Shown: positions 7,761 through 64,000 of the stretch, piece by piece
Layout: each line of letters opens with the position of its first letter
Position numbering within the stretch: the first letter of the stretch is position 1
Source of the DNA: Schmidtea nova
Taxonomy: Eukaryota
Direction of reading: 5' to 3'
DNA: 64,000 nt
Assembly (NCBI GenBank): GCA_044892505.1
Contig: CM097884.1
Location: 6,572,001 to 6,636,000, forward strand
Program-made: the position numbers and the translations under genes
Notes under the pieces: model-generated
Told to the model about the DNA's origin: nothing
The model's database searches: none
Seen by the model: only the letters and a program-made list of their open reading frames with translations

Positions 7761-7919
7761 TGCCGAGTTTGGTTTGTGAGTTTAATTTATAAATTGTTCC
7801 AAAATATAAATAATCTCAAATTAGACAAGTAAAACAAAATAAAATGAAATAATAACATTTGAATTGGATTAAATTTGTTTTAAAATATATAATATGCAAA
7901 TTGGTGAATTAGAACGGGA

Positions 7920-28068: not shown

Positions 28069-29406
28069 ACGATTTTATAACTGAAGCAACTATTTAATAA
28101 ATAAATATTTTTATATATTGAAATTATGTGTTCCTAGGGATTTATTTGCAATTATTTTAATCGTTTTTATCTTTGTTTTTATCCCCTGATTACACCAAAT
28201 ATATCCAATGACAGACATTCGATCAAAACCGTGTTTGGTCTCGCTATGCCTTGAATTCATAAAAAAGATCATTGGTGATCATTTACCTAGACAAAATCTC
28301 AGAAGTCAAAATCAGTCCTAAATCCTTTAAAAATATTCCCATTTTCTAAACAAGATTAATCTTAACTTATCAATTTGAGATCCTTACACTATTTAACAAT
28401 GAAATACAAAGGGACAAATCCAACCGTTGTCCATGAGAATGAAAATGCTGACAATTAGTGAAAGCCAGTAAAGAACAAATCCTAACAGTTTCCTAAAAAT
28501 GTTTATATAACTATTTTGTAAGCTAAAGTGACAAGGGGAATAGTTGGTTCTTACAGGAACTTTCTGCTATTATTAGTAAATAAATCTTGAACTCGCAGTA
28601 AATAAACGTCAAAAGCAAAGGATATGCAAGGTAAACGATTCGGATAAAACGCAATTCATGGCTAGATGATGCGCTCTAAGGAATCCAAACAGTCAATATG
28701 TACCAAGGCTAGGATTGTCATTTAGTTTATGGTATTATCCTGAAATTCTGAGTGAATAATTCTTTCCAAAAAGCTTTTCAGGTCTTCACTATCACAAATC
28801 TTCGGACACGTCTATGAATATTATATAAAATGCCATAGAAGAAATCAGAATGACATTTATTATCCGTGAACGACTGCAATGATATGAAATTTGGGATCTC
28901 CATTGTCACCTCGAAGAAGGTTCATGTAAAAAACCATTTCAGTGAATGTTAGTAGGAGGAAGCGTGGACGGGGGAACAAAGACATATGACGTCATTGCGT
29001 GTGTGCATCCAATCAAAATCAAGTGCCCCCGGGGAGGGGTACTTTTCTTTTTTTTTTGCGACCCCCCCAAAATTTTTTTTACACACACAAACGATGAGTC
29101 ATAAAACTTTTTTAAGCTCAAATTTTAAGGGACACTTTAAGGACATTTTGAGGACACTTTAATGTCAAATTTTAAGGACAAGTTAAGGTCAAGGTCACCA
29201 TGAGGTCAAGATTATGTTAAGGTCAATTTTTAAGGTCAAATTTTAAAAATTTTCAAAAATTCAAAAATTTTTCCAAAAACATAAAAAACTTAACAATTCT
29301 TTAAAAAACATAAAATTTTACAAAACATTTTTTCAAAAACACCAAGTGAGAATTAATCAACATTTATTAATAAATACACATATACATGACAACAATGTTA
29401 TTCCAT

Positions 29407-29850
29407 CTATGCAATTCTTGCGCTTTTTATCTTCCAAATTGGAAACATTGATTCTTTTGGATCGATTTTATATCCGTGGATGGATATATCAATAAACCAA
29501 TTTTCATTATCCGTATATTCAACTAATTGAAATGCATCATGAAATTCGGTGTTCCTGTTGTTGATGAATATTGTTTCATTGCAAGATAATTTCTTGTTGA
29601 TTTTCGTCAACAGTTTATTGATTGCAACAACATATTCTTTATAAATCTGATCAATTAAGTTGGAATATTGCGAAGTCGACAGCTTTACCGGATTTGAGAC
29701 CTTGAAAGAGATTTCGTTTACCAAGAAAAACATTTGGTAATCGTGAAACATCTGAACCGGTCGTAAATCAAATTTGTTTTGAGTTGATTTGTTATCGTTC
29801 CTAACTGGTTTCATTATAATTGGACTCGATTTACTGAGAAGATTTTGCAT
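29407..29850 (-). CDS. Intact 147-aa Maverick accessory ORF of unknown function
   Basis: Open ATG-to-stop frame with ordinary composition; TATA and CCAAT boxes upstream. Confidence 0.7.
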   Translation of the reverse strand: MQNLLSKSSPIIMKPVRNDNKSTQNKFDLRPVQMFHDYQMFFLVNEISFKVSNPVKLSTSQYSNLIDQIYKEYVVAINKLLTKINKKLSCNETIFINNRNTEFHDAFQLVEYTDNENWFIDISIHGYKIDPKESMFPIWKIKSARIA

Positions 29851-29878
29851 TTTATGAACAATACTATTTTTGTTTTCT

Positions 29879-29967
29879 TATTTATACTCGTCATCGTCTA
29901 TGTGCAGCCAATCAGATTCTTGCATATGTCTTGTAAATCAATTACACATGTCTTGCTAATCGATTGG
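29879..29967 (-). promoter_or_regulatory. TATA box plus two CCAAT boxes upstream of ORF 29850
   Basis: TATAAATA (minus, 29886-29879) about 30 nt before the ATG; CCAAT at 29908-29912 (plus) and 29967-29963 (minus). Confidence 0.55.
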
Positions 29968-30057
29968 ATATGTATTAATAATTGACTTTGTATGCATGTT
30001 GATGATTATCTACTGCAATTTCTTTCTATATATATTGTAAATTATTTACATATCACA

Positions 30058-30147
30058 ATTTTATTGTCTATCACAATTTTCTTGTCTATCGCAATTTTTT
30101 GTCTATCGCAATTTTCTTGTCTATCGCTATTTTCTTGTCTATCGCAA
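30058..30147. repeat. 18-bp minisatellite TTTTCTTGTCTATCGCAA running into a gap
   Basis: Five visible units. Confidence 0.85.
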
Positions 30148-30626
30148 NNNNNNNNNNNNNNNNNNNNNNNNNNNNNNNNNNNNNNNNNNNNNNNNNNNNN
30201 NNNNNNNNNNNNNNNNNNNNNNNNNNNNNNNNNNNNNNNNNNNNNNNNNNNNNNNNNNNNNNNNNNNNNNNNNNNNNNNNNNNNNNNNNNNNNNNNNNNN
30301 NNNNNNNNNNNNNNNNNNNNNNNNNNNATTATTTTACATTATTATTTTCAATAAATATTCAGCATCAACATTTTATAAAAATTTATTTTAACTACAAAAC
30401 ATCTTTCATAACTCGGTACGTTTTAAGAAAATAAATACTTTATAAAAAACACAATAAAAAGACATTTTTACTTTAAAATGACAAACAACTCGTAACATCG
30501 CATAAAAATCAACAAAATTAAAAACAAATGTTTTGGCTTTTGATAAAAAATTTATTAAAATAACAAAGTGCTTCTTATAATTTCTGGTGGGACATGCAAA
30601 TCAATCGGCATTTCCCAAACTATCAT

Positions 30627-33600
30627 CTATTCGGCATCTGGCCATTCGGCATCTGTCCATTCGGCATCTGTCCAATCGGCATCTGTCCATTCGGTATCGG
30701 GCCATTCGGTATTTGCTCACTCATCAGGATCATCTATAGTAGAGTCACCTCCCCCCCGATAATGACCATAGGCTAAACTTTTATTTTTACCCACCCAATT
30801 TCGTTTATCATCAGCGTTTGTTAATGCTTTTTTATTACTTTTTACACTAAACAACTGATGATCTTTGCTGGTTATGCGAAATCGGGGCACAGTGTAGATT
30901 TTATTATTTAAATAACAATCAAGATATGATTGGTGAGATAATTTAGTATCTTTGATTGATATACCTTTAGCCTTCATACTAGCTTCAATACCCGATAAAC
31001 TGTAGCATTTAGGTCTCAAAAATACCCATTCATCATATCCAAGGCCTTTACTCTCATCCTTAAATTTACCAATCACCGAGTCAAGGTTTCTTTAATATAA
31101 CAAATGAGTCGGATCATAATTTGATGTATCTAATAGATTATCTCTTATCATTGCTGGTAAGAGACAATCTAATTTACAATTTTTTATTTCTAGGAAAATT
31201 GAGCCGGTGTCCCTAGCAATAATATTGATTTGGCAATTAAATTCATTCCTGTATTTCTCCAAATCAATATACTGCAGCTGATACATGCGCAGTTTGGATA
31301 GATCTAGTACAGTTTGACCTATGTAACTAGGTCTATCCAAACACACCGACTCCTTTCTCAATAAAACTGAAATTAAATTATTATCTATTTTTGTACTCTT
31401 CCGAAAAGCCGGTTTAGAGCAATATGTTAATAGTTTTTGTGCAGAATTGCACAATCTTAAATTAATTCGTTTTTAGTGGTTTTCTACGGTTTTACCGTAT
31501 AAACTGTTATTTAGTAGTTTATAATAATTTTTATCAAGTTTATTTATGGCTGAAGCTCTTAATTGTGTATTTGTGTCAATATATTTTTTGAATATATTAT
31601 TTTGATTGAATTTTATGGCACGATGTACCTTAGATATTTTGACTCCTATATTAATAAATAATTGGAGAAGCCTCCAATGCAGAACGTAGTTTTTCTTGGA
31701 GTGGTACGTGAGCAAATGCTTCTCTACCTTTGAATTTGGCGCGCACATCTTTTCAGCTGCAACTGGAAAATCATCCAGTTTGTCGTGAATCGACGACGCT
31801 AAATCTACCTCTATGGTATAGCCATATGTAAGTAAATCTAAATCTAATGTTTCACACTCTAATAATATATTATTTAATAAAAAATCATCCGCTACCCATT
31901 TAAAATTACCCTCGGGGAGCTTTTGACTCAAAGTCCATCCATACAGGTTGTTGATGTTAATATACAACAACTCATTATCAGCGCTGGTTTTGACATAGTG
32001 CTTATTAACAAAGGTAAGCCCCCCACGAATCCCTTCCTCAAAGAAATTATAAATTTCCATGTCTTGGATCAGCTCTATAGGTTTGTCTAAAGTCATTAGT
32101 GCCGAACTCCAAGACATGACAGGAATGCCCAAGAAATTTAAGGGCTCAAGTTTATTATGAGCAAGTGATTTTGCTCTGAATTGCTGAAAGAAGTCAGCCA
32201 ATAGAAAAACATCTAATTTAAGATAGACCAACATGTAATCAAAAAGATTATTACAGTTGGTCTCTCGCCAAATATCTTTTGCCATTGAATAATCGGCCTC
32301 AGTTACATCTTTTCAAATTGGAGGCAATTCAGTAATAGATAAAAGAGCATCTAAGCTAGTGGCAACATCATATGGGAAAATCCCTTTTGAATTTATGATA
32401 GTGCCCTGAAATTCCATTGAAGTTAAAGGTAAAGTATTTAAGGTCTTTACAGCTTTATCTAAAGATTCACTTACAAATTATCAAGAGTCAATAAACTTAA
32501 CTGTAAGTGAATCTATTCGCGCAAACAGTGAAAGAAACTTTTCACTGGTAATTGGAATAACGCTAATATTCCATGACTCATATTTTGAAAGCCCGAATTT
32601 GAGGATATGATGTACATCATACCCTCTCAAATTATGGAAGACAACTGGTAAGGTATGTCGGACTTACCTCGAAGCATTACATTTCATGCAAGCAGCGCCA
32701 ATGAATCGACCAGTAAAATGATCATGATCCCTAACTAGGTTATTTAAAATTTTCTTACACAAATAACAGTTAGTAGAAGCATCAAAAATTAACTTATCTG
32801 CGTCACTAAAAATTATTTTCTTTTGATAATTACGGTAAAAGAAAGGTGTTACAATTCTCTTACTAATATTTTCTACCTCTGAAAGAAACTCATCAACATA
32901 ATTAAGACCTAAAAAGTGTTTATAAGTTTTTTCGCCGGTAACATTATTGATGAGTAACAAGCCAGCAGAAATCGGTAAGTGACGTTGAAAGTATTTAACA
33001 TCTTTTGGTAATATTGCCTCAAAGTCGGCATAGATAACAAAGGGAGGAGTGACAGTTATCGCTTAATCCTCGAATTCAAGATGTTTATTTTTAGGCAAAG
33101 TGTACAAAGTTGTACCTAACTGATTTTCAGCACATAAATCTATATGACTATTAAAAGAATCATCGGTTCGAAAACCATTAAGACATCTGGGACACCATTC
33201 ATTACAAATACGGACGGCTGTAAAGGCAGGATTCCTGCAATTTAAAAATTTATTTAAGTTAGTTATTGCAGCATAATGATATGTCTGAGAATTTTCAAGT
33301 AATAATAAATTAATTGGTTTTCCCCATACAACTTTGGAACGATAAATTATATCTATGAAGGGGTGTTTCATTACTTTCTCCTTATTTGTGATATCTACTA
33401 AAGCTTTTTCGTCATAAGAAAGGACGTTAATTGTTAAGCCGGGATTTTGCATTTCAAATTTAGAAATGCTCGAAAGTTTCATCGGCATTTGTGAAGGATC
33501 AAATTTAAGATCTGAAAGATTATACGATGAAGGTCTATTTCGAGTTTAACGTGTAATTGTATCATATTTTAAAATAGCCAAGACGCTATACACGAAACAA

Positions 33601-34793
33601 AAGTTATCATTATTAATTACGTTAACAATACAAAATTTATTTTTTAAAGTTTTTGGGGTATCTATAAATTTTTGGCCGCTTAACCTACTTATTTCCGCAA
33701 ATTTTGTGACAATAAAGCTGATATACTCTATTTTATTAATGGTCCAATTACTGTCCTTCTGATTAATTTTAATAATTTTTTCGTTTAATAAAGCAATACC
33801 TTCATCAATGAAATTATCACTCATGGGTCTGGCAGAATTTGAAATGACAAAAGATTGTAATTCGTCATCTTTCTCAAACTCCACCTTCAGACAAAATTTA
33901 ATTTTGACTTACCCCATTTGACTAATAACAGTATTTAATTTATTTAATAAGACATAGGGAACCGATACAGTTTTTAATATTAAGGATGAAACATCCATTT
34001 TAATAATTGAATGGGTACTGTTTAAATCAGTACTTATTTCAGGTTCTAGTGAACCGCATCCGATCTGATTATTAATAATATTATTATTATTATTTGTTGA
34101 CATATTAATTATTGATGTGATATTATTATTATTATTTGTTGACATATTAATTATTGATGTGATACTATTATTTTCATTTGGTGACATATTAATTATTGAT
34201 GTGATATTATTATTATTTTCATTTGGTGATATATTATTTATTGATGTGTTATTTTTATCATTATTAACATTATTTGGATGTATAATAGAATACGAATTAA
34301 TAATTACAGGAGTAATTTCATCCTCCTCGTCGGAAATATTAATTACTTCATTTTTAATAAATTTACAAGGAATTGATTCCTCGTTTAAAATTTTTCGTTT
34401 ATTGTTGTTACTGGAAAAATTATTATTATTATTAATATTATTAATATTATTAATATTATTACTATTATTTCTATTGTTGTTTGAGAAATTATTGACGTTG
34501 TTGTTGTTGGAAATATTAGTATTATTAATATTATTATTTCTATTGTTGTTTGAGAAATTATTGATGTTATTGTTGTTGGAAATATTATTATTATTTATAT
34601 TGTCGTTATGTATATTATTTTGAATATTTATTTTATTATTATTAAAAATAGCTTTTTTAGAACCAATATACGGAGTATAATGATATCGGTGTTTATCATA
34701 AAACTCAGTATATGAAAGGGTTTCGTTGATTTTACAAATAGGGCAAATGAGGAAGGTGACTCTACTATATTTATACGAATAGTACTTTTCCAT
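30627..34793 (-). pseudogene. polB: Protein-primed family B DNA polymerase (pPolB), disrupted
   Basis: ORF-track fragments 34793-33909, 33884-33546, 33488-33063, 32960-32664, 32285-31473, 31454-31092 and 31076-30717 chain through stops and frameshifts. Motifs: YADFE, DHDHFTG..ACMKCN, FHNLRGYD, YLKLDV, GIRGG, YININNLYG (D>N), KLLNNSLYGK, ARDTGS (degenerate GDTDS), LRPKCYS. Confidence 0.95.
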
Positions 34794-35254
34794 AATTTGA
34801 TGGCAATAATTATGTAAAGTACTATTACAGTATAAAGGGTAATTTGAACCTTTAGAATAAAAAATAATGATAAAATAATTATAAAATAATTATAAAATAA
34901 GTGAAAAATAAATTCAAAATAAACATAAGTTTAAATTATTACGAATAGTTTAATCTATTTTATCAGTTTAAACTATTACATAATATGATAATCAAATGTC
35001 AACACAAAAATAATTTTTTTGTTCAAAAGATTACGTCACTGTGTGAAGTGCGATTAACTAAATATGATAATTTATATTTTATTTATTAAATCACCGTATA
35101 AAATATGATAACGTGTTTTAATTGACATTAAATGTATTGAAGGGTAGGTATTAATATCAACTTTTAAAAGATTATATAATTATTATAACTAAATTAATAT
35201 CATTAAGTTAATATTATTTATTAAAAACTATTATTATTATTATTATTATTATCG

Positions 35255-35288
<34 letters not shown>

Positions 35289-35598
35289 CTAATAAAAACT
35301 ATAATAATCAAATAACTAATATTATTTTCAATAAGATATTAAATGTTTTTTATTATAACTTTTATTAATACTTTATATTATTATTGAAAATTAATACCAT
35401 TACGTTTCTTTTATAAAATATAATATTATTTTTATTATTTTATTGAATGTAAATGATATCAGTTTTTTGAAAATATTATTGAATATATTCATAGTTAATT
35501 GAGAATATTATTTAATTAAGGTAAAATATTAATATTAAAATATCATAAAAACTATTATAAAACTATTATAAAACCTTATAAAAAATTAAAAATCTTAC

Positions 35599-35936
35599 AT
35601 TTTGTTCTACCATTCGTCAAGGAATTTATCGATGCATTATTATAAAAATTTTCACCATTTGAAGCGTCATTAAAATTTGTTGCTGATACATTTGGGGCAT
35701 TAAATTCTATCGCCGATACATTTTGTGCATTTAAATGTTCTATAAAACATGAAATAAAATAATAAATTTACAAATATAATTTTACCGTTTCTATAAACAC
35801 CATTATTGTTATCGTTTCCAGATACATTTATAACATTTCACATATTATTTCTTGAAATTCCTAAAATAAAAAATAAATCCTTACCATTGAATCCATTGAT
35901 GTTGGTATTTTTAACTTTATTGATATTATTGTACAT
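35599..35936 (-). pseudogene. Putative spliced Asn-rich Maverick accessory gene
   Basis: ATG at 35936; phase-1 GT-AG introns 35884-35861 (24 nt) and 35785-35740 (46 nt); next donor GTAAGA at 35598. Product MYNNINKVKNTNINGFNG..NVSGND..EHLNAQNVSAIEFNAPNVSATNFND with one TGA in exon 2. Confidence 0.45.
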
Positions 35937-36260
35937 TTTTAATTAACGATTATAAGATGAATAAGAAATTTTGGGCTATAGTAAAAAGTGACTAAAATAT
36001 TGAAAACATATCTTTATATAAGATATATTGAATAATATTAATTGAACCAATGAAAATCGTTTATGAGAAGAAAATATTCTCTCACACACATACAACATAA
36101 ATTTACCAGCTGTGTGTGTATTATCATACACGTATGTTATACATACATGTTAACTCATTATAATTTTCATTAATACACACATGATTACTCATACACGATG
36201 ACCGCAGAGGTCATGCATTTCAATTGCAAATTTTGTAATTCAAAGCAATTAAGCATATAA

Positions 36261-36530
36261 TTAATTTTTTAAATAATCTAAAGCCCCCACAAAACACCCT
36301 TTATATGCACAATTTGTATGATCTCGATATGGGCATGAAATATTGTAATATAATAATCTTAGGGAGGGGAAATATCTTTTTAAAACAGCAAGTTTATCTT
36401 GATCAGTGACATAGAAAATTGCACCAACATCTTCAATTTCTTTCAAAACACAAGTTGGACAAAAGTACCATTCATACAATTCTAATCTATCAGGTTCACC
36501 AATTCCAGCCCAAAAAGGAACATCATTATA
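36261..36530 (-). pseudogene. Maverick accessory protein fragment with Cys/His C-terminus (possibly exonuclease-fold-derived)
   Basis: YNDVPFWAGIG...IFYVTDQDKLAVLKRYFP...NISCPYRDHTNCAYKG resembles, from memory, a recurrent YVKG..K..WL...C..H...CA Maverick protein. The 5' end is replaced by 12-bp repeats (36530-36620). Confidence 0.4.
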
Positions 36531-36738
36531 TATCCGAAAATTATATATATCCGATTATATATATTATTATATATATTATTATATATCCGATTATATATAT
36601 TATTATATATCCGAAAAATATTATTAACATTCATAATACATAATTCTTTAATAATTATCCCATCGCAATTATCATTATAACCATAAATATCAATAAAATA
36701 ACAAATTATTTTCTAAAACATTTATTAAACTACATTGT

Positions 36739-37121
36739 TTATACTTTTAACATTGAATTAAGCCATGCAAGACAATGTTGACAACAAGTAATTGTTAATG
36801 GATGTTGATACCGAATTCGATTATATACAATCGGTTTACCCAATGTTTGTAGTTTACTAACTAATAAACCAGGGTAATAGCATCCGAAGGGATCGAATGC
36901 ATACACCTTGCTTGGTTTCACATATACAGCAATCCAATGTTCTCCGCCTAGAGTAGATGATTGAGTATTGGCAACTATGGCTTGGTTGACATCTAAATAA
37001 GGGATTTTGTCTAGTGGATATACTCCAATAAATTCATTTCCAATAATTGTTTTCCAATTCGATTAACCTGAATAGAACTATATAAATAGATTTATTTAAT
37101 AAATAATAAAACTTACTCCAT
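36739..37121 (-). pseudogene. Adenain-like cysteine protease with a 39-nt intron and a 1-nt frameshift
   Basis: ATG GA|GTAAGT...TATAG|T TCT ATT CAG gives MDSIQVNRIG; then FIGVYPLD, GEHWIAV, FDPFG, YQHPLTITCCQHC. Confidence 0.88.
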
Positions 37122-37161
37122 GAAAATTGTTAACTTTGACTTGTACATTTATATTGATAGT

Positions 37162-38040
37162 TTAAACCAAAACTGTTCGATTAGCAGTAATTTGAATTTC
37201 ATTTTCAAATACTCCATATATTATTACATGTACTGGTTCTTCAATAGCTTTAGAAAACTTTATGTCCAATCTCAAAATTTCGTTTTGAGGTAATTGACTT
37301 TGATTTAAATCGAAATCCGGATCCAAAACAAATGTAAAGAAAGGGTATTTGTTTTTAAAATCGGCTAGTGTTATACCACAATTCAAATTCTTATCTAAAT
37401 ATCCCATATCTCTGACCATCGACTGCATATATGTAGTACAATAATTATCATATTCAAATACTTGAGTATATGTTTCTCGATAATCAGTGTTTTTCGATAG
37501 AGATAGGGAAGTTACATTGAAATGTTTGAATTTCGAACTTGATGCATTATATGATCCATTGTATTGAGTTTCACTTTGAAATGCAACCAGAATGAAATTT
37601 GGCATTATTCGATCTCCAAATAATTTTTCCTTATAGAAAGATGACGCACCTTTACCTATTGCAAATTGTACTATTTCTTTGGTTTTCATTGGATAAATAG
37701 CGTGTTTTGAGTTAAGTCCAACTTGATGTCCAGCTAATACAAATGGTTCAACGCGAACGCGACGAATCATTAACTTTGCATCAACTAATTGACATTTTGG
37801 TGCAACGTTTTTTGAATATAGTGATAGTGCAGAATCCGAACGCTTCAGTCTGATGTGAACATTGACACCTGGTAATAAATATTTCGGTTGATCCATGAAA
37901 TCCAGTTGTAGAGATGAACACATTGTAAATAGCTTTGAGCCTTTGATCCACGCTTTTCTCTTGTCAGAATCTCCATATCCCATTGGAGTAAAACAAGTTT
38001 CTTTAGTATCACCATTATAATTTAAAATAGTTTCGATTAT
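37162..38040 (-). pseudogene. Major capsid protein (PY/hexon-like), C-terminal ~290 aa
   Basis: IIETILNY, LQLDFMDQPKYLLPGVNVHIRLKRS, MPNFILVAF, YNGSYNAS...FKHFNV, YPFFTFVLDPD, LRLDIKF and VIIYGVFENEIQI are typical of Maverick MCP. The N-terminus is lost at the junction with integrase. Confidence 0.88.
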
Positions 38041-38628
38041 TGCCTTTATTACCTTGATACACAAAATACTTTTTCAATCGATCTCTTAATGTACGATTAA
38101 ATTGTTCAATTTGGGCGTCTTTGAATTGAGAGAACACAGAATAATGATTAATCCCGGCCAAAACTTCTTTAACTTTACTATTCTAAAATTCTTTACCTAA
38201 ATTATAATTAACAATGAACAAAATTAGTATATATTCTTACCCAAATCAGTTTGTAAATTCTTTGGGCGACCGGACTTAAACATAGTTTTGATTGTAACAG
38301 CCATTTCATTTGCTGATTTAGTTTTAGTAGGAATAGCCCGAGCAAATCTATTGAAAACATCGATACATGTTAAAATATATTTATATCCCTTGTTAATATT
38401 TGAATAGGGAATCATTTTCATCAAATCCATTTGCCACAAGTCATTATTGCCATATGTTTTATATGCTCTTGTTGGAAATTGTTTCAATGCCGGTTTGTTT
38501 AGACTGTATATCAGTTGCCCCGATAACCATTTTTGAGTTTCTTTTTTCGAGTTTGGGACTTTTTTCTTTAGCTTTTCGACTCCACCGAAACCGGCGGGAT
38601 CTTTTGGGTTTGTCCATATCTTCTCCAT
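38041..38628 (-). pseudogene. Retroviral-like (rve) integrase with a 44-nt intron, C-terminally deleted
   Basis: PAGFGG, DLWQMDL, YKYILTCIDVF, LQTDLG|KEF, NHYSVFS and IEQFNRTL (D-D-E triad); intron 38240-38197; TAG at 38185. Confidence 0.9.
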
Positions 38629-38695
38629 TACAACAAGAAGAATTAAAATTCAATTTAAGATTAGGAAAATGAACAATCGGTAATTGACCCATTGT

Positions 38696-39241
38696 TTATG
38701 ATTTTGAGGGTTTTCCTAGTAATCCTACACCACCTAATAAAGATAATGCTAATGGTACCAATGCTGCAATAAACCCTCCGTGTTGTTTATATATTATTTT
38801 GCGCATTTGTTTTTTATTTTTAGTATTTACTAGTGATAATAATGGTTTCTTGTGTTTGTTCAACACATTTTTATTTGATTTACTGATATTAATTTTACCT
38901 TTGACAACTTTAACTATAACATCAAGTAAATCATCAATTACATAATTGGGAAACGATTGTAAAATACTCATTCTTCTAATGCTTGGAGCCTTGAGTAATG
39001 CATTGAAAAATGGAAAACTGCGATGATTTTTTGATTTTTTACTTGCAGTTGCCTTTGATATCTTTGGTGTATCGGGTTTTGAATTGTGTGAAATTAGATT
39101 CATTTTGGGAAAATTTTCGGTGATTAATTTCTTCGGACGTGTAAAACTCGTTTTAGGTGGAATTATTGTTTCACGATTCTTTTTAATAACTTTTCTAAGT
39201 TTTGATATCTTTGGATGTTTGGCTCGTGCTTTAAATATCAT
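38696..39241 (-). CDS. Basic Maverick core/pX-like protein with a GGF protease-cleavage motif
   Basis: Lys-rich 181-aa ORF ending KIIYKQHGGFIAALVPLALSLLGG. Confidence 0.75.
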   Translation of the reverse strand: MIFKARAKHPKISKLRKVIKKNRETIIPPKTSFTRPKKLITENFPKMNLISHNSKPDTPKISKATASKKSKNHRSFPFFNALLKAPSIRRMSILQSFPNYVIDDLLDVIVKVVKGKINISKSNKNVLNKHKKPLLSLVNTKNKKQMRKIIYKQHGGFIAALVPLALSLLGGVGLLGKPSKS

Positions 39242-39872
39242 GATTAATTTCGAACATGAATTTAACTTTGTTTATAAACCATTGCTCCTTCTTTGTAAAA
39301 ATATCAGTTCTAACACGTAATTCATCACTACATTGTTGAGTAAAATCGAGAAAAATATATCCATGTGGGAATTTAGTTGCATCTTGAAATGCATTGATCA
39401 AATATTTCCGATTATTAGGGTTTGCCTGTCTTGCAAGAAAATCAATAACGGTAGCATCTCTAGGATTTTTAAAATAACTAGATATTGAACATTCAAATTT
39501 CAAGTTCGATGACTACCACCCTGATGAAATAAATTCTGAGTAATAAAAATAACTGTAACTCCTTTATGTCTAGCAATTTTTGTGAATTAATTATTGAAAT
39601 CCTTCTCTTTATTTGCTTCTTGATACAAATCATCAATAATAATTACATCACCACTTCGTAATCTAGACGACCAGGTTTTATCGAATCCTTTTATTATTGT
39701 CATTTTAATCTTACAGAATTGATCTTGAGTCATTCCATATTCATTATCAGCTCCCTATGCCAATAAAGTTTGATTTGAATAATTTTGATTGTAATAATTT
39801 ACAAACAAATAAAGTTTTTCCACTTCCACATGGACTGACAATTTGATAAACTGCATCATTTCTTAACTCCAT
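39231..39872 (-). pseudogene. Packaging ATPase (FtsK/A32-like), disrupted
   Basis: Walker A SPCGSGKT, Walker B VIIIDD, RHKGVTVIFITQ, FKNPRD, PHGYIFLD, LRVRTDIF; two stops and several frameshifts. Confidence 0.9.
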
Positions 39873-39968
39873 TTTCAAAATATTAAGAGTTTATGGATAT
39901 TGTTTATATTTGTTTTAATTAATTGTTATACTTTTACGAAAATTATTTAAAAAATAATCAGACTTATA

Positions 39969-40274
39969 ATGTTAAGCAACATAAAGTACAAAGGAAAATG
40001 TTCTGTTTCTCGTATGAAATTTCCAAATGGTAAGCCACAGCAGATTGTAGATAGGAAAGGTAAGTATCCTATAATATTTTTCAAGTCCGGTAAATGTAGA
40101 ATAATGGGATGTAAACAACCTCTTAAAGATCAAGATTTATTATATGAAATAAATGATTTACAAATACAATCGATTACAGTTACTACAGATATTAGGAAAT
40201 GTGTTAATTTACATGAATTGTCACAAAATCTCTCATGTTCTTATGAGCCAGAAATATTCCCAGCATTGAAATAA
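39969..40274 (+). CDS. TBP-like gene, copy 3 (3'-truncated by an (AAT)n tract), inside the Maverick
   Basis: PIIFFKSGKCRIMGCK resembles TBP TALIFSSGKMVCTGAK; LQIQSITVTTDI resembles FKIQNMVGSCDV; SYEPEIFPAL resembles SYEPELFPGL. Confidence 0.8.
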   Translation: MLSNIKYKGKCSVSRMKFPNGKPQQIVDRKGKYPIIFFKSGKCRIMGCKQPLKDQDLLYEINDLQIQSITVTTDIRKCVNLHELSQNLSCSYEPEIFPALK

Positions 40275-40297
40275 ACAAAGTATAATAATAATAAAGT

Positions 40298-40499: not shown

Positions 40500-41012
40500 A
40501 ATTTTTTAAAATAGTGATAGAAAAATTTTTCAAATACACACATAAACACCATCTCTCATACTCAGCTGTCAATTACCTTTTGTTTGATATACATATTATA
40601 TAGTTTTAAAAATTTGAACATTGGACCCTTTATATAACCTTCAAGGGTATGACCTTCAAACTCATATGTCAATTACCTTTTGTTTGATATACATATTAAA
40701 AAGTTTTAAAAATTTGAACCTTGGACCTTTGTAGGGTATGACCTTCAAACTCACCATCAAAAGTCCTTATGAATGATATACAACTTGTAAGGTTTAAAAA
40801 ACATTTAAGTTTTGACACCCTTGAAGGTAATTGACCCACCATAGACCTTCGAAGGTATAACCATCATTCTTACCTCTGAAATACCTTTCGAATAATATAT
40901 AACTTGTAAGGTTTAAATATCTTTGAAGGTTTTGTATCCTTTGAAGTTTGAGCTCCCACTATAAATGTTCTAAAGTATGACCATCATGCACATCTCACAA
41001 ATACCTTTCGAA

Positions 41013-41083
<71 letters not shown>

Positions 41084-41379
41084 GAGGTTTGAAAAGATTT
41101 GAAGGTTTTGCACCCTTTGAAGGTTCAGGACCCTCCACAAACCTTCAAAAGTATGATCATTGTATAAACCTTTCCAAGACCTTTCGAATGATACCCTTGT
41201 TTGAAGGTTTGACCTTATTTGAGCTCTGGAAAGTCAAATTTAAAATCTGAATTTGAAATGAGTCATCGATCACGTCATAAAGAAAATCTTTCTACCCGGG
41301 GGGTTGAGTCATAATGTCTTTGTGTGAGTCATCAATGAGTCATCATGTCTTTGTTCCCGGCTCCACACTTCTACCTTCA
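40500..41379 (-). repeat. Maverick right subterminal region with ~100-120-bp imperfect tandem units and a TGAGTCA cluster
   Basis: TGTCAATTACCTTTTGTTTGATATACATATT twice; AATGATATA...AGGTTT...TTTGAAGG-type units about four times; TGAGTCA at 41259, 41305, 41325 and 41336. Confidence 0.7.
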
Positions 41380-47887: not shown

Positions 47888-47962
47888 TTAGCAACAGTCG
47901 CCTGGTGAAAAAGGTGGTGTTGTCATCTCACTTTGTACTACTTTATAATAATGATAATGATA

Positions 47963-48015
<53 letters not shown>

Positions 48016-48688
48016 TGAATCGATCCAAGAACTCATCGAATAAACTTTTTATTTTATCAGCAAACAATTCATCTGTCATATTGTCAAAGACATTACTATT
48101 TAACCATCGGAAATTCATTTTGTCCACACATTGTATTAACTTGTCAAGATCAAAGTCATAATCATACACGTCCACACCAATATCATTTTCATTCAAGATT
48201 TCTGACATATGATCTCCTGACAACACCATTAATTATACACAGTTCTTTCGAGATTCTCGAGAAGCAGTACAAAACTCAGCCGAACTAGCTTTCTGTTCAT
48301 TGAGATAACCTTCGACGTTGTAGACATCATAGAATTGCAATGCGATTAATTTTTAAGATTCATTGGAAATTGTGCTGGAAATCACGTCAATGTCTTTTAT
48401 TTTACAATTGAATTTGGTTCTTTCAATACTTTCATCTTTAATGTTGACAGCTGTTACGATTATTTTATGTGATAAATCTTTCCTCCATTGAATTACGAGC
48501 GAACCAGATGCAGACAAAGCATCTAAACATTCAACAGGATTTTCAGATGAACTGCAAAATGTGTTGAGCACCTCGAATACCAATTCTCTATTCATTGAAA
48601 ATTTGGGTTTGAAAGATACATCAGCACTTTTAGAAGATTGACATTCACCATCTGATAATCTATTTGCAATTTTTTCAGAATACAGCAT
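47888..48688 (-). pseudogene. Decayed ORF of unknown function (mirror copy from 63215 on + strand)
   Basis: ORFs 48688-48353 and 48229-47888 share one frame broken by two TAA stops; a (TAT)n expansion lies in the 3' part. Confidence 0.45.
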
Positions 48689-49679
48689 TGTCTGATTTAT
48701 TTTTAAAAACTTCCAATTTAAATCTCAACTTTGTCAAAAAACACTCAGCAAAATTTAAATCAACCAAAAAATTCCAATTGCCGAAAAGGTGCTATAATAC
48801 AAAAATCAAAATCAAAAATATGAATCGAGAATTAAAATTCCAATCTGAATCCAAGAAAATCAAAATAATTCGACGAAACAAATCAGTCAAAGCTTCATTG
48901 ATTCCACAACTCCACAATCTTTAATCAATTCCTAAGAATTCGAACAAACCCGCACACAGACGCGAGAAAAGTAAGTCATAAAAATAAATGATGCGCACAC
49001 AGAAGTCTAGAAAATTGACAACGCGCACACAGACGCGACAAAAAAAACAAATCACGCCCACAGTAAGCCTTCTATCTGAGCTACCNNNNNNNNNNNNNNN
49101 NNNNNNNNNNNNNNNNNNNNNNNNNNNNNNNNNNNNNNNNNNNNNNNNNNNNNNNNNNNNNNNNNNNNNNNNNNNNNNNNNNNNNNNNNNNNNNNNNNNN
49201 NNNNNNNNNNNNNNNNNNNNNNNNNNNNNNNNNNNNNNNNNNNNNNNNNNNNNNNNNNNNNNNNNNNNNNNNNNNNNNNNNNNNNNNNNNNNNNNNNNNN
49301 NNNNNNNNNNNNNNNNGAGAAACAATACTCATGTGAAATTTCTTTGGCCACAATTTCGATAATGTGTTTTTGAGGATTTATTGGTAAATTGTGTCATTTT
49401 CTCTTTTATAACTGTAGAAAATATATATATGAGAGATAAAATACATTCATTTTTTTATAAATATATTTTATAAGCATTCAAATACACAACTTATCTGAAG
49501 ACAGATTTGAAGATAATTTTCTTTTTTAACCTTTAATTGTCCAAAGATTGTAGAGAATTCTAAGAAACGACTTAATTTGTGACTATGTAATTCAGCGTCG
49601 AGACTGATTATATCCACTTTTAAACCGACTTTTCGAAAAAATATAAAATTTATAATGATATTATCTCAAGGTATATATG

Positions 49680-50345
49680 TTTAGATAGACCGAGCTATAC
49701 TAGACAAACTGTACTGGATCTATTTAAACTTAGATGTATCAACTCCAGTATGAAGAATTACAACAATATTGTAATGAATTCAACTGTGAAATTAATATAG
49801 TTGCTGTTGATACAGACTCTTTTTTTCTCGAAGACTAAGAATTGTAAGTTGGAAACTCTTTTGTCATCTATCGTTTATACTTTAAGACACTTCGAATTAT
49901 GATCCAGATCATCCTTTGTACTCGAAAATTCTTAATTCTGTCATTGGTAAATTCAAAGATGAGAATAAAGAATCCAATTATGATGAGGGGGTGTTTCTTT
50001 GATCCAAGTGTTATAGTCTTTTACGGGAAAAAAGAGCATTAAGACTAAGGGTATAACACTGAAGGGTACTGACCTGAAACATCAGTCATACCTGGATTGT
50101 TATAATAATAATACAATAGTTTCGGTCGACTAGTCGAGAATAGTTAGTAAAAATCATCAACTTTTAACTAATAAATCTCGTAAAAATGCTTTGACTAACT
50201 TTGGCGATAAAGTACTTTGAATAGGAAAAAATGAAAGTATTGAATGTGGTCATTATATGAGTATAGATGGGGTTATGGGTGCGTAAAAATGATGAAATCG
50301 ATGATGCCGATGAAGCCGAAGAATATTCAGATGTTTTTTATATCT
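49680..50345 (+). pseudogene. Third pPolB C-terminal fragment (degenerate)
   Basis: LDRPSY..QTVLDL, NIVAVDTDSFF, SNYDPDHPLYS, IGKFKDE, KCYS, GHY. Confidence 0.85.
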
Positions 50346-53300
50346 AAAATATTATTTTAAAATTTTGTGTTTTTCATAATTTATATGATTTTTATCAGTA
50401 GTGTTTTCAAATTGTTAGTTTTTGCTGCTTTTTATAATTTTTTATGAATTTTCTATTGTTTGCAGTTAAACTGTGAGTATTTTGATATCAAGATTATTGA
50501 ATTTTGACTGTTAGTTGCAATTACATTGCACTTGGTTTCTTCTTTAGACATTGTTTTTTATTAATAACAAGATTTAATTCCAAAAATTATATTCAATAAA
50601 TCAAATTATTCAAACAATATTAATCAATAATACTATTCGAATATTTCTTCTGAAGCATCGATAATTTTTATGAGCTATGATTCAAACATTATGTAATTCA
50701 CCATACCGATTAAATGTTATATTTGAAATTTTATTTAAAATTAAAATGTTTGAAATTAAAATTTTAAACTCATTTTTGAATTTAATAAAATTTTATAACA
50801 TTAATTTTTAAAACAATATTTATTAAACTTATTTTTTCAAATTTTTAAATATTTATATCAACACTTCACACTGACCATCTTTGGAAATTGTGAGAGTGGA
50901 CTCTTTTTACGTATACAATGGTGTCGGATGAGACCAATTTTTTATGTTTTGACTTATTTACCCTTTTTTGTTTGTCATTCAATTCTCAATAGATTGGTAT
51001 AAAAATTACTGAATTCTGAGCAGATTTTATTTTGTCGGTGGACACCGACTTTTTCATATTTTACATTTATACCTTTTTGTTCTTCATTTAATTCTCAGTA
51101 GAATGGTAAAAAAATTATTGAATTTGTGAAATTGTGAGAGTCGACCCATTTTGCTTGTAAATTGTCTGTGGGCTTTAAATTCTTCATGTTTTCCCTAATT
51201 TTTTGAAAAGATTTGAAAAATTAAATGACTATAAAAATCGGAATTACATCATCATTTCCATAACAAAAATTATCGTGTCATCGATAACAAAATAAAATAG
51301 ATTATAAAGTATTATGTAAAATAATGAGATTACATGAGACCTAAGTGTTATATAACTTTGTGAAACCCCAGAAAAACTTTAGGGGACTACTGTTAATTAT
51401 TATGTAATTTATGCAGTTTAGGAATAAATGGCTTGCGCCAGAGCGCTTGCTTCTCCTTACCATTTAATAATATAACTAGACATATTTCTGTTAATTAAAT
51501 TCGCTTTCACTTGTAAATTTGTTTTTAGATTTTTTATTTGTGATTTGATTTTAAAATCAGTTCCTATTATGTAACTCAATTAACCATTTTTATGAGAATA
51601 TTTTTTCTTTTCTTTTTTGAGAAATATAGAATTGGTGATTTTTACATGATTTCTGAAAAAAAGAGAGTTTCCCGTTTTTATTGATGGTTTTCTTGTAAAT
51701 ATTTTTTTTTGTTTACAAATTTATGAGAGTTGTCCTATTTTGTATGATCAATTGATGATGTTGACGCTTTTTACTTGACAGTGTTTATTTCATTTTTAAG
51801 AATTGTAAAAGTCCAAACTTTTCAAGTGAATATTTTGACGGTGGAGAATAATTTATGCTGGAAAATTGGAACTTGTTCATCCCTCAAAATATACCGGATG
51901 TTATTGTTTTTTCATTTAGGAATTGTGAAGGTCCACCCTTTTGCTCTAGATAACTATTGTGGATCAGTTTTTTTCTAGCAAACCATTTGGGAAACATGCC
52001 GGATAAAATTACAAAATTTATGACAGACTGAGTGAACGATTCTTATTAATATAAACATTTGCATTTGCATGTAACAACACGCTTTTTTTACTCTAGCTTA
52101 TAACTTACGCATGTGAAAAAGTGACAAGGATAGCTTTGCACAAAAATCAAAATATGCAAATCAATAAAACACTTTATTCGAAAAAAATATTTTTTAGTGT
52201 CAAAAGTGCGCTTTTATATATTTTTAATAAAATTTCCAAATTTGTATCAATTATACGCGTTTAATATTTTGAATAAATAATGTATTTAATAAAATTTAAT
52301 TTTAATTTAATAATTGAATAAATAAAGGACGGGCCAGATAAAAATCATTCTTGGCCGTAGTTTGGTGGGTGGCGAATTTGTTATGTCTATTGTAAATTAT
52401 AAACAAAAGAATTTTGATTTTGTTTTCCAGCCGATTTTATATTCATAGAATATTGAACTTTGAGGAGGAAGGGTAAAAATGTTTTATGAATGATATTGTG
52501 GAAATGTGAGGCGTTGTGAAAGCATGTTCTGTAACTTTTATATGCTCTCAACTAATTCCCGGTTGTGCAGTTTTCAATCAAAAGGGTTCAACTGTAATTT
52601 ACTTATCCATTGATGTGCTGCCCGTTCTATCCGATAAAGGTGTCGATGTATAAATGCTTAAAATAAGATACATGAGGAACTATAAACCTTCTTAATTCTG
52701 ATTATTTACATGTTATCTTAGGTTAGGGGTTATGAAGAAACCTTGAATTATTGAAAGACTATTGCTGACATCCATCTCGAATCTGATACTTCCATTGCAT
52801 AGGATAGTGAAACTAATCCGATCAGTTCTGGCAGCCACCTACATAATATATCGCAAAAAATATTATTATTTTATGATTTATTGTAATATTGATATAGTAT
52901 TATAAAAGTTTAGTAATCATTTTAAATTTTTTCAGATTTGTCATATATAATGATATAAAAAAGAGACTTGCGGAATGAATATATAAATAAGAGGTCAGAA
53001 ATGTCATGAAATGTTGCCAAGTAAAAGAAATAATTAAACGACACCTTGTGAATATATTGGAGAATGATTCTATATAATGATAGAATTTATATACAAATAC
53101 AAAATAAATTTCCACCTCTCCACATCCTAATATTCCCTAAACATCCTAGCTAGTGTACTTGTTTGGACAAAATAATTACACAGGTAAAGACGTCATATAT
53201 CATTGACAGAAGTGTGCATATAGTTATATTTTAATTAATATTATTTTTATTGAAATAAAAATAAAAATAATGAAGAAAATAATTTTACATTTTGTCATAT

Positions 53301-54406
53301 GAAAGCACTGATAAACTTAATAAAATATTAAATAATTATTTCTAACTTTAAAATATGTGTTCTTGATGGGGTCAAGATAAAATAAATAAAATATTTTATA
53401 AATTTAAACAACTACAAGTTTAACCTTCATATGACATTGACCTCCATCAGTTATTTTTTTATCCTAAAAATATAAAGATAAAATACAATAAATCTACATA
53501 TAAAGTGGTCAAAGATATTTTGTTTAGAACTGAAACATATTTTATAAAAATTCTTCAATTTGTTTTAATTTATTCATGACAGAATTGCATAATTTAGTAA
53601 TTGCTATGGAAGGTGACCGCTTTTATAGAAGGAAGCAAAATATGAAAGAATATAAATATGACATTTGTCAGATTTATGCGATTCTGGAACTAATTTTTTA
53701 AAATTATTTGTTTTGTTTATTGGCATATACTTTTAACTGAAAGTGTAATATTTTGACTTATAACAGTTGATTATGGCAATTTATTTCGATGACAATATAA
53801 TTTTGTTTATAAATAATCATAACATATTTGTGGTAATTTTTATTTATTTTTTGAGATTATCTTGAGTAAGGGTAAATTTTATATTTTATTTGTATTTATT
53901 ATATATAATATAGATTTATATTATTTGCAATTGAATTACAAACATGAACACACACATACACAAAAACACACACATACACAAAAACACACACATATATACA
54001 CACACTTATATATATTTAGCTGGGAAAACTTTACATAGTATAATTATATTATTAAATATCGCATAATGCTTGTTTGAATGTCAAAATTATAATTTGTTTG
54101 AATTAATAAAGTTTCACTTCAGGAAATTAGGCCAAATGCCTGTAAAATTATTTTTGTTGCGATATATTGTAAAACTCGTGAATTTGATGTATTTGTTGTG
54201 AAAATAATGATTTGTTATTTGTTGTATTGAGAAAGAGTAGAAATTCTACTAAATTCTTTACAAGCACAATAATAATAAAAACTGAATGCACATTTATCCC
54301 GATATTTATATTCGTGATCTGACGAAATAGATTTTATTAACGTTTGACTAGTGGACAAAACAAGTGAAAGAATCAACAGTTCGGTTGTTACAGCTTATCA
54401 AATTCT

Positions 54407-55641
54407 CATAAAAATGAGAAACAAATAAAAAATAATTATATTATTGAAGTTGATAAAACTGGATCTGTATAGCCATTCACAAGAGGGGAGGTTTTGCCCT
54501 TTCATTGTCAATTCGTCAATTTGACAATAATAACTATGACAACTTACCAAGGTTACAAATAAATATTTACAAATAAATAATTAACAAGGTTACAGTATAA
54601 ATGAAATATTACCATTATTGGCTTTGGAAAATTTTTGAGGTAAGTTTTATTTATTATTATCAATAATATTTTAAAGTTTTTATAGATTTTTGTTTATAAT
54701 GAGTTTTTAATTTATATAATTCAGTCGTCATTCCAATATTTGTGAGTTTTTGATAAAAATATTTAGATAAAAATTCTTTATTTGAAAAAAACTTGTTCAA
54801 TAATATCTAAAATTAATTTTGTGAAAAGGACTGCTATCATAATCTGTCTACTGAAAAANNNNNNNNNNNNNNNNNNNNNNNNNNNNNNNNNNNNNNNNNN
54901 NNNNNNNNNNNNNNNNNNNNNNNNNNNNNNNNNNNNNNNNNNNNNNNNNNNNNNNNNNNNNNNNNNNNNNNNNNNNNNNNNNNNNNNNNNNNNNNNNNNN
55001 NNNNNNNNNNNNNNNNNNNNNNNNNNNNNNNNNNNNNNNNNNNNNNNNNNNNNNNNNNNNNNNNNNNNNNNNNNNNNNNNNNNNNNNNNNNNNNNNNNNN
55101 NNNNNNNNNNNNNNNNNNNNNNNNNNNNNNNNNNNNNNNNNNNNNNNNNNNNNNNNNNNNNNNNNNNNNNNNNNNNNNNNNNNNNNNNTTTTTCAGTAGA
55201 CAGATTATGATAGCAGTCCTTTTCACAAAATTAATTTTAGATATTATTGAACAAGTTTTTTTCAAATAAAGAATTTTTATCTAAATATTTTTATCAAAAA
55301 CTCACAAATATTGGAATGACGACTGAATTATATAAATTAAAAACTCATTTTAAACAAAAATCTATAAAAACTTTAAAATATTATTGATAATAATAAATAA
55401 AACTTACCTCAAAAATTTTCCAAAGCCAATAATGGTAATATTTCATTTATACTGTAACCTTGTTAATTATTTATTTGTAAATATTTATTTGTAACCTTGG
55501 TAAGTTGTCATAGTTATTATTGTCAAATTGACGAATTGACAATGAAAGGGCAAAACCTCCCCTCTTGTGAATGGCTATACAGATCCAGTTTTATCAACTT
55601 CAATAATATAATTATTTTTTATTTGTTTCTCATTTTTATGA
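54407..55641. repeat. Nested inverted repeat (~450-bp arms) centred on an N gap
   Basis: 54407-54858 mirrors 55189-55641 with about one mismatch. Confidence 0.92.
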
Positions 55642-58600
55642 AATTGAATAAATTGACCAAATTTATCTCCTAAACCTTGCATCCAATAACCATATAATGC
55701 GTAACCACTCTAGGATTTTATCTATTGCTATATACAGATATTCAAAATATAAATTTACAGTTAATATTATTTTTTTACTTCCATTGAAAGTTATTAGAAC
55801 AAATTGCATTATTATTGTGATTATAAATATCCCTCGCGCCTGCCAGCCCCAAGTTATTGTCACGTAATGGTAAGCTATAAACCATTCATGGCTTACAAAG
55901 TGTCAGTGGAAAGCGCTAACATAATGTTTTTTCTATTTTGAAAATTTTAAAAGAGGTCAACAGTAAAAATTCGTCAAGATCTTTTTTCTGTATTTATAAT
56001 AATTTCTATTAAACATGAACTCAGCCGATTTTCGATAATTCGGTCCCTCTTGGAGAAAGTAGGGAAAGTGAGATTGATATAAAACCACTTGTAAATGGCA
56101 TTGACAACATATATATTTGTATATGAATACTTCACAGGTGAAATTCTTTTTGTGAAGTATTATTAATAATTATAATTTTACTCGTAATTATGATCATTAT
56201 TTTGTTAATATAACAAATAAATTAATCATCTGTATTGTCTTAATGTTGCTCAGTGAAACATTTAAAGAGAAATCTTTTCAAGTGACCGAAGTGTACGCAT
56301 GAATTAATAAATATCATTTAAATTATATTAAAGAATTCTGAAAAAATCTCAAATTTTTATTTTCGATATATTTTTCCTATTTTTTTTTTGTTTTAATTTA
56401 ATTTAAATTTTATTGCCGATAAAATACACAAATAAATCACAATTAGTAAGTCCACCAACAAATAAAACATTTAAATTACAAATTATTTCTAGCAAAACAA
56501 TTTCAAAATTCCGTATTTTTCTTATTGCCAATTGAAATAATTAATAAAACAATTAATCTAAAATATTCAAAGTAAAAATTTGTTCACATTTTATATCATT
56601 CGATTTTGATTAGAAGCAAGATTTAAACAAAATTTGTTAGTATATTTGGAAAGTCTATTACAAATAATGAAAATTATGAGAATAATTAAATAGAAATATC
56701 ATTTAATTTTGGGATAAATAGATATAAAAACCATAATAAAAATAAATAATAATATTATAAATTAATATTATAAATAAAATTTAGTTATTATTTGGCTTCA
56801 TTGTAAATTTCATATTTAAGAATGATTGGAGAATGAAAATATAAAATATTTATTGAACGCTTGTATATGAATATTCATTAATCAATTATTAACTCATGCT
56901 TGCTAAAATATACTCAAATATAAATACGAAATTGTTTAAATTTTGTGTTGTGTTTAAAAATATAGATTTCTGAAATCATGCCGGTTTTTAATTTAAGAAA
57001 CCAAACTAATAATAGTAATATTCCATTTTGATAAAATATTTCAATGACAAAGTAGCAGTTAAAGTCCTAGAAAGATAAATTAAAAATTTTTATGAAATTT
57101 CTATTTGAAAGTAATAATTTACCATATAATAATATTTTNNNNNNNNNNNNNNNNNNNNNNNNNNNNNNNNNNNNNNNNNNNNNNNNNNNNNNNNNNNNNN
57201 NNNNNNNNNNNNNNNNNNNNNNNNNNNNNNNNNNNNNNNNNNNNNNNNNNNNNNNNNNNNNNNNNNNNNNNNNNNNNNNNNNNNNNNNNNNNNNNNNNNN
57301 NNNNNNNNNNNNNNNNNNTAATTTCTCCCACCATTTATTTATTTTTGATACTTTTTCACTTATAAAGAAGTTTGCAATAAAATTTATATTCCATGCTTGA
57401 ATGAAATTCAGCATTTGTTTACCTAAGAACAAAAAGTGCCATATTCATGTTCATTTACTCCCAAAATAACAAAATTAAATATCATACATTATTAAAAATT
57501 TGATAAGCTGTAACAACCGAACTGTTGATTCTTTCACTTGTTTTGTCCACTAGTCAAACGTTAATAAAATCTATTTCGTCAGATCACGAATATAAATATC
57601 GGGATAAATGTGCATTCAGTTTTTATTATTATTGTGCTTGTAAAGAATTTAGTAGAATTTCTACTCTTTCTCAATACAACAAATAACAAATCATTATTTT
57701 CACAACAAATACATCAAATTCACGAGTTTTACAATATATCGCAACAAAAATAATTTTACAGGCATTTGGCCTAATTTCCTGAAGTGAAACTTTATTAATT
57801 CAAACAAATTATAATTTTGACATTCAAACAAGCATTATGCGATATTTAATAATATAATTATACTATGTAAAGTTTTCCCAGCTAAATATATATAAGTGTG
57901 TGTATATATGTGTGTGTTTTTGTGTATGTGTGTGTTTTTGTGTATGTGTGTGTTCATGTTTGTAATTCAATTGCAAATAATATAAATCTATATTATATAT
58001 AATAAATACAAATAAAATATAAAATTTACCCTTACTCAAGATAATCTCAAAAAATAAATAAAAATTACCACAAATATGTTATGATTATTTATAAACAAAA
58101 TTATATTGTCATCGAAATAAATTGCCATAATCAACTGTTATAAGTCAAAATATTACACTTTCAGTTAAAAGTATATGCCAATAAACAAAACAAATAATTT
58201 TAAAAAATTAGTTCCAGAATCGCATAAATCTGACAAATGTCATATTTATATTCTTTCATATTTTGCTTTCTTCTATAAAAGCGGTCACCTTCCATAGCAA
58301 TTACTAAATTATGCAATTCTGTCATGAATAAATTAAAACAAATTGAAGAATTTTTATAAAATATGTTTCAGTTCTAAACAAAATATCTTTGACCACTTTA
58401 TATGTAGATTTATTGTATTTTATCTTTATATTTTTAGGATAAAAAAATAACTGATGGAGGTCAATGTCATATGAAGGTTAAACTTGTAGTTGTGTAAATT
58501 TATAAAATATTTTATTTATTTTATCTTGACCCCATCAAGAACACATATTTTAAAGTTAGAAATAATTATTTAATATTTTATTAAGTTTATCAGTGCTTTC

Positions 58601-61557: not shown

Positions 61558-62223
61558 TATAAAAAACATCTGAATATTCTTCGGCTTCATCGGCATCATC
61601 GATTTCATCATTTTTACGCACCCATAACCCCATCTATACTCATATAATGACCACATTCAATACTTTCATTTTTTCCTATTCAAAGTACTTTATCGCCAAA
61701 GTTAGTCAAAGCATTTTTACGAGATTTATTAGTTAAAAGTTGATGATTTTTACTAACTATTCTCGACTAGTCGACCGAAACTATTGTATTATTATTATAA
61801 CAATCCAGGTATGACTGATGTTTCAGGTCAGTACCCTTCAGTGTTATACCCTTAGTCTTAATGCTCTTTTTTCCCGTAAAAGACTATAACACTTGGATCA
61901 AAGAAACACCCCCTCATCATAATTGGATTCTTTATTCTCATCTTTGAATTTACCAATGACAGAATTAAGAATTTTCGAGTACAAAGGATGATCTGGATCA
62001 TAATTCGAAGTGTCTTAAAGTATAAACGATAGATGACAAAAGAGTTTCCAACTTACAATTCTTAGTCTTCGAGAAAAAAAGAGTCTGTATCAACAGCAAC
62101 TATATTAATTTCACAGTTGAATTCATTACAATATTGTTGTAATTCTTCATACTGGAGTTGATACATCTAAGTTTAAATAGATCCAGTACAGTTTGTCTAG
62201 TATAGCTCGGTCTATCTAAACAT
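61558..62223 (-). pseudogene. Mirror copy of the third pPolB fragment
   Basis: Reverse complement of 49680-50345. Confidence 0.85.
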
Positions 62224-63887: not shown

Positions 63888-63952
<65 letters not shown>

Positions 63953-64000
63953 TATCATTATCATTATTATAAAGTAGTACAAAGTGAGATGACAACACCA

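Follow-up and report, generated by a model that had tools for sequence, protein, structure and literature searches.

TBP homologues are found in nucleocytoviruses, which also encode their own RNA polymerase. Among herpesviruses, KSHV ORF24, EBV BcRF1 and HCMV UL87 combine a viral TBP fold with structural genes that follow a non-canonical variant of the TATA box. These TBP mimics read TATT late promoters, and ORF24 is polar at the positions of V122, T124, V161 and L205 (PMC12529657, available portion). A TBP-labelled gene is also drawn on the map of a MELD virus with an adintovirus-like PolB (Starrett et al. 2021, PMC8502044, Fig. 5 legend, from the available part of the paper). The word "promoter" is absent from the main text of that paper, and "TBP" and "TATA" are absent from one supplement. 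The initial annotation of the locus studied here did not know TBP homologues as standard Maverick genes; a TBP-like gene was already labelled in print on the map of this related virus. Our search of the literature on Mavericks, Polintons or adintoviruses together with TBP, TATA or late promoters, with subscription papers and bioRxiv supplements outside its range, returned no paper on the gene family or on the DNA box described below, and the papers found did not address the timing of animal Maverick capsid genes. Here we describe a conserved Maverick gene with a paired DNA motif, which is well supported, and from the sequences we infer a functional link between the two.

The window analysed is a stretch of 64,000 nucleotides of Schmidtea nova DNA, in which a Maverick element spans about 28951 to 40286, with a TBP-like piece (copy 3) as its broken end (Table 1). 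The Maverick core set of protein-primed PolB, integrase, packaging ATPase and protease was identified by Pfam, and the polymerase, protease, putative capsid, integrase and ATPase remnants all lie on the minus strand. The names capsid, minor capsid and core protein are labels that we assume from size and position. The putative capsid gene, which encodes 406 aa and is conserved in eight elements without a Pfam match, is truncated in the window by a deletion that runs into it from the integrase (junction near 38045). The putative minor capsid gene was seen in two tandem copies in two unrelated elements (L150:4926-6978 and L083:5616-7687). The terminal inverted repeats of a natural copy are 1,380 bp long and agree at 98.7% between its two ends. 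Copy 3 had been placed between the packaging ATPase and the right terminus. It does stand head-to-head with the broken ATPase gene, but the element's own right end is absent there, and the DNA at 40736-41244, although terminus-like, agrees with that end at only 77-85%. The predicted structure of the 147-aa protein encoded near the left end (window 29410-29850; L073:1788-2135; pLDDT 91.6) resembles the single-strand DNA-binding proteins of phage Enc34 and T7 (gp2.5), with weak E-values, none below 0.001. This neighbour was considered as a possible cofactor and rejected, as it looks like a single-strand DNA-binding protein instead.

Table 1. Features of the window, in order of position
Feature	Position	Strand	Remarks
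Cytochrome P450 exons	1758-7781		DDE transposase inside
TBP-like copy 1	about 10220-10588	-	3' part only, broken; inverted duplicate of copy 2
TBP-like copy 2	12865-13431, gene from 12898	+	older family, stops and frameshifts; canonical TATAAATA 33 nt before ATG
Transposase-like helix-turn-helix frame	13851-14510
Left terminus, likely	28951-28975	+	AGTAG start; terminal motif that we take to be the Maverick end
147-aa gene, likely single-strand DNA-binding protein	29407-29886	-	in terminal inverted repeat; canonical TATAAATA at 29886
Protein-primed DNA polymerase B	30717-34793	-	PF03175 E 3.2e-17, PF02945; broken by stops
Conserved 139-aa gene, broken	36267-36709	-	TATAAACA box at 36736-36743 (-), 34 nt before
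Adenovirus-type protease	36739-37062	-	PF00770 E 7e-5, above cut-off
Putative major capsid gene	37162-38046	-	first 112 codons missing; no Pfam match
Integrase, N-terminal part	38224-38649	-	PF00665 E 1.8e-8
Basic 181-aa gene, core-protein-like	38696-39241	-	further boxes at 38791 and 38700
Packaging ATPase gene, frameshifted	39265-39872	-	tblastn pieces; PF04665 on unbroken copy
TATAAACA box	39269-39276	-	inside ATPase 3' end (codons Y-K-Q), 35 nt before next gene
TATAAACA box	39901-39908	-	36 nt before ATPase start, spacer shared with TBP gene
TBP-like copy 3	39969-40274	+	open 101-codon frame, stop at codon 102, broken
Inverted duplication, near-perfect (99-99.9%), about 6.5 kb	47915-64000		tRNA methyltransferase exon and polymerase remnants inside; could be recent or an assembly effect

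Copy 3 matches PF00352 (E 1.1e-8, 35.2 bits, cut-off 22.9), and of its 35 matches among solved structures, 34 are TBP or chains that contain it. It is 94% identical to natural 156-aa copies, with the similarity ending at codon 106, at the start of an AAT microsatellite. Copy 1 is 89% identical to 13030-13263 within copy 2. These two form a single local inverted duplication, which leaves two families in the window instead of three independent copies. The initial annotation was right about three homologous copies, but not about a Maverick context for all of them, as copies 1 and 2 have no Maverick core gene near them within the window. None of the 29 nearest genomic relatives of these two has an ATPase within 1.5 kb, as opposed to all 29 of the copy-3 family, and an unbroken frame was found in only two of the former. 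In ten wider neighbourhoods, the older family often lay amid other Maverick debris.

The genome (1.25 Gb) gave 16,502 candidates, of which 150, all about 95% identical, were scored, and the counts are lower bounds. Among the best 29 loci, which as best matches are biased toward intact copies, 27 have an unbroken frame of at least 150 aa and all 29 have a head-to-head ATPase. The unbroken natural copies are intronless and 156 aa long, in agreement with the roughly 155 aa predicted from the merged window copies, and one of them scores 58.8 bits against PF00352 with the same cut-off of 22.9. At least four diverged TBP-like families exist in the genome (62-66% identity to the first). The dN/dS ratio was 0.105-0.35 in 11 of 12 TBP-like pairs, with one pair saturated and some dS values near saturation, and 0.04-0.08 for the ATPase. 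At loci L124, L125 and L165/L166, the TBP end of the element is duplicated in inverted orientation, giving fold-back copies. The host itself possesses two TBP genes, the second accompanied by a partial duplicate in inverted orientation, plus two divergent TBP-related genes (L128:1222-1818, L129, L127/L130); its TFIIB gene is split by introns.

Elsewhere, 83 of 97 candidates were homologues, with 37-72% identity. The query and 70 of them were aligned (71 sequences), leaving out 13 that were mostly short. A core Maverick gene accompanied 24 of 55 metagenome loci and some element gene 37; for the 20 metagenome contigs of at least 3 kb, the numbers were 15 and 18. Linkage to Mavericks, on which the initial annotation had made its claim depend, was thus observed both there and at the best copy-3 loci. 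A tree was built from 30 element proteins (26 of the 83 homologues and four of our own), four host genes, nine of 80 archaeal loci and three viral-contig TBPs. The element proteins formed a single clade on a long branch with a support of 100/100, and the viral-contig TBPs grouped with the cellular ones, apart from it. Host TBPs share only 24-29% identity with the element protein, in partial matches, compared to the far higher values of the element homologues. Because the element proteins form one clade far from host TBPs, rather than nesting among them, the gene is not a host retrocopy. Together with the TBP fold described next, these data support the proposal of a Maverick family with its own TBP-like factor.

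The predicted model (pLDDT 97.2) has a two-lobed saddle fold that spans the whole core. It matches TBP, as had been anticipated, with a Z of 12.7 and an rmsd of 2.5 over 141 aligned residues (model 1-142), compared with a Z of 6.4 for the next unrelated row; hhalign to TBP gave 99.3%. Repeat 2 is complete in the model, and repeat 1 keeps its strands without the long helices. No helix of four or more residues precedes residue 81, and the canonical H1 and H2 are thus not present in both repeats. Two stretches of repeat 1 are shortened by 13 residues each (34 versus 47 and 21 versus 34 residues between anchors). The initial annotation held it plausible that all four DNA-intercalating Phe residues of TBP were kept. 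Three are, namely F38 (70 of 71 sequences), F97 and F113 (71 of 71 each), but the first is most likely replaced by Pro23 (70 of 71), with the Phe of "KFP" aligning to a structural Tyr of TBP; the Pro23 register was set manually, one position off the ungapped alignment print, at a place where hhalign is gapped. The acidic loop is kept at the sequence level (E93 in 67, P94 in 71 and E95 in 70 of 71), and N4 is kept as well.

Eight base-facing positions differ from host TBP, each in 66-71 of the 71 sequences, and the new residues are mostly polar. In yeast numbering (taken from the available portions of PMC12529657, Table 1, and PMC1636458), the changes are V71 to N6, V122 to R44, T124 to M46, N159 to S68, V161 to T70, I194 to R101, V203 to C109 and L205 to N111. 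I194, V203 and L205 are the positions of a yeast altered-specificity mutant and lie near the second base pair (PMC1636458, available portion). Assuming the canonical orientation, repeat 2 would sit upstream, and repeat 1, with N6, P23, R44 and M46, would lie on the downstream half of the box, which contains the C.

Like cellular TBP and its paralogues (PF00352), the element protein has the saddle fold and retains the equivalents of F116, F190, F207, N69, P191 and E186/E188. It differs from them in these base-facing positions and in a repeat 1 that is about 25-30 residues shorter and without long helices. The best viral fold matches were the nucleocytovirus TBP homologues (E 6e-8 onward); unlike in those viruses, no RNA polymerase gene was seen in these elements. 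The herpesvirus rows were weak fold matches (E about 1e-3 to 1e-2) with no sign of common descent. As far as the accessible descriptions of the herpesvirus proteins go, the polar replacements at V122, T124, V161 and L205 are shared with ORF24. In contrast, the element protein keeps the acidic TFIIB loop, likely has three intercalating Phe instead of four, is paired with TATAAAC, and stands alone at 156 aa, whereas the herpesvirus protein has 752 aa and several domains and works in a complex of six. The element protein is an analogue and not a member of the herpesvirus TBP mimics, whose large size, Pol II-binding and additional DNA-binding domains and lack of acidic TFIIB residues it does not share.

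In nine elements (47.5 kb), all 59 occurrences of YATAAAC[AG] were on the strand of the virion genes and none on the opposite one. TATAAAC was the top 7-mer in these elements (51 versus 14.4 expected), and TATAAAT and TATAAAA were not enriched. The polymerase genes contained one box in 14.2 kb. The box lies 32-48 nt before an ATG in 31 of the 59 cases and 96-107 nt before it in 11, with no ATG within 130 nt in five; canonical TATA boxes in these elements stand equally far from the ATG. No conserved initiator was found downstream of the 59 boxes. In non-redundant upstream windows, the box was present for ATPase (14/15), capsid (8/10), 139-aa (8/11) and core-like (1/3) genes, or 31 of 39, against 2 of 40 for TBP, SSB-like and polymerase genes (TBP genes alone, 2/36); shuffled windows averaged 2.0 and never exceeded 7. 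This four-gene set was picked after the motif was seen, and the fit was poorer in the same window for the protease (0/5), the 132-aa gene (1/7) and the putative minor capsid gene (4/8). P values are overstated because the elements share ancestry. Boxes also occur before the integrase region. The ATPase is the first gene of its block, and the box precedes it even in layouts without an upstream gene on that strand.

The box also fixes codons inside upstream genes, as Ile-Asn pairs are spelled exactly ATAAAC in 25 of 39 cases near gene ends versus 4 of 57 elsewhere. A Y/H-K-Q/H footprint of the box was found in 78 of 80 parsed ATPase tails among the 120 listed, and in 43 of 65 parsed tails among the 120 listed for a second lineage, where it is missing in most distant rows; this conservation in relatives is only suggestive. 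A second Maverick type in the same genome, in which no TBP was found, had the box in 0 of 20 upstream windows, with a weak sense bias (8 versus 0) and TATAAAC at 10 versus 6.6 expected (P 0.13). It is a distant control of four elements with undefined ends and the only TBP-less comparison, and hence does not amount to co-variation of box and TBP. This type (L149-L156) carries a jelly-roll capsid (PF21738) and a phospholipase-like domain on its integrase, and has A/T runs directly before its ATGs in place of the box. A TBP-type element harbours one nested copy of this type. A screen of viral contigs by alignments of the capsid and the ATPase and by a single degenerate pattern yielded no Maverick.

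The initial annotation had suggested that the protein could drive its own TATAAATA promoters at 12865 and 29886, which was not supported. TATAAATA occurs 49 times in the window, so these two sites are not rare. Both lie 33-36 nt before an ATG, that of the TBP gene and of the likely single-strand DNA-binding gene, respectively, and resemble ordinary promoters read by the host. It is TATAAAC(A) before particle genes, and not TATAAATA, that is specific to the element. Among 33 TBP-gene upstream regions, a canonical TATA was found in 14, in 11 of them with a TCA initiator 28-30 nt downstream. In 12 of the same 33 regions, a reversed TTGTTT(T/A)A box was observed; no region had both boxes and seven had neither. 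The reversed box possibly reflects self-regulation.

Taken together, the TBP-fold protein likely binds TATAAAC(A) and would switch on the particle-building genes as a late-gene promoter factor, comparable in action to the TATT-binding mimics of herpesviruses, a reading that we hold to be probable. It is the simplest account that joins two oddities, an altered DNA face in the TBP and an altered base in the TATA box. Host TBP and Pol II would first read the TBP and replication genes, as many of these early genes have a TCA initiator about 30 nt downstream of a canonical TATA. The viral protein would then occupy TATAAAC, whose seventh base C falls outside the host consensus. Its acidic loop (E93, E95) would recruit host TFIIB and Pol II, and the loss of the repeat-1 helices would free it from host regulators that act on the outer face of TBP. 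These steps combined would form an early-to-late cascade. Against this reading, the likely loss of one intercalating Phe could weaken DNA bending, and the three invariant swaps near base 2 map to where the box is canonical.

Host consensus YWTAWADN excludes C at position 7 (PMC1935006, available portion). However, there is a crystal structure of wild-type TBP on a TATA variant with C(-25) (1qn3, listed among Hoogsteen-pair structures in the part of the source available), and host TBP may therefore read the box. An alternative is thus that a host factor, whether TBP, a divergent paralogue or a forkhead protein, reads the box and that the viral TBP, say, represses or fine-tunes. The several TBP and TBP-related genes of the host would provide candidates, and the only TBP-less comparison is a distant Maverick type. 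Forkhead proteins recognise RYAAAYA, with GTAAACA as the best site, and ATAAACA fits this pattern. However, GTAAACA was not enriched in the nine elements (9 versus 10.5), the box is strictly oriented and positioned with a base outside even the degenerate host consensus, and the positioned box is absent from the second Maverick type in the same host. We regard this alternative as unlikely.

The protein might instead not activate the TATAAAC genes at all but serve as a decoy or competitor, lowering host or early viral transcription by its binding to TFIIB or to host TATA boxes. The retention of the TFIIB-side acidic loop, when one Phe and the repeat-1 helices were lost, would suit such a role, as would the older family, which carries the gene without adjacent virion genes. 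A pure decoy, however, needs no invariant new residues on its DNA face and leaves the box unexplained, which makes this reading improbable. Still less probable is that the box is an oriented signal other than a promoter, acting in transcript end formation or processing, replication or packaging, and paired with the TBP through shared ancestry. Many boxes do coincide with the 3' end of a gene upstream, a downstream initiator is not conserved, and some boxes are far from any ATG; against this stand the box's presence before the first gene of the block, its resemblance to a TATA box and its promoter-like distance to the ATG. Finally, a decayed host TBP retrocopy or functionless passenger, which the lack of introns and the breakage of all three window copies might suggest, is refuted by the low identity to host TBPs, the separate clade, dN/dS values far below 1 and the mostly unbroken top copies of the family.

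Returning to the late-gene promoter factor, a bolder version of this reading is that a widespread Maverick lineage carries an orthogonal pair, in which a 156-aa TBP reads TATAAAC alone, recruits TFIIB and ignores host TBP regulators, as a one-protein early-to-late switch. We give this version somewhat less than an even chance; if true, the very many unbroken copies could switch on host genes that carry the box. If these elements do encode a promoter factor together with its matching box, this would speak for a viral life cycle that proceeds in stages. The late-gene strategy of herpesviruses would then have a second, independent origin in minimal form, and the protein, as a TBP whose specificity was altered in nature, would reveal what TBP can do without.
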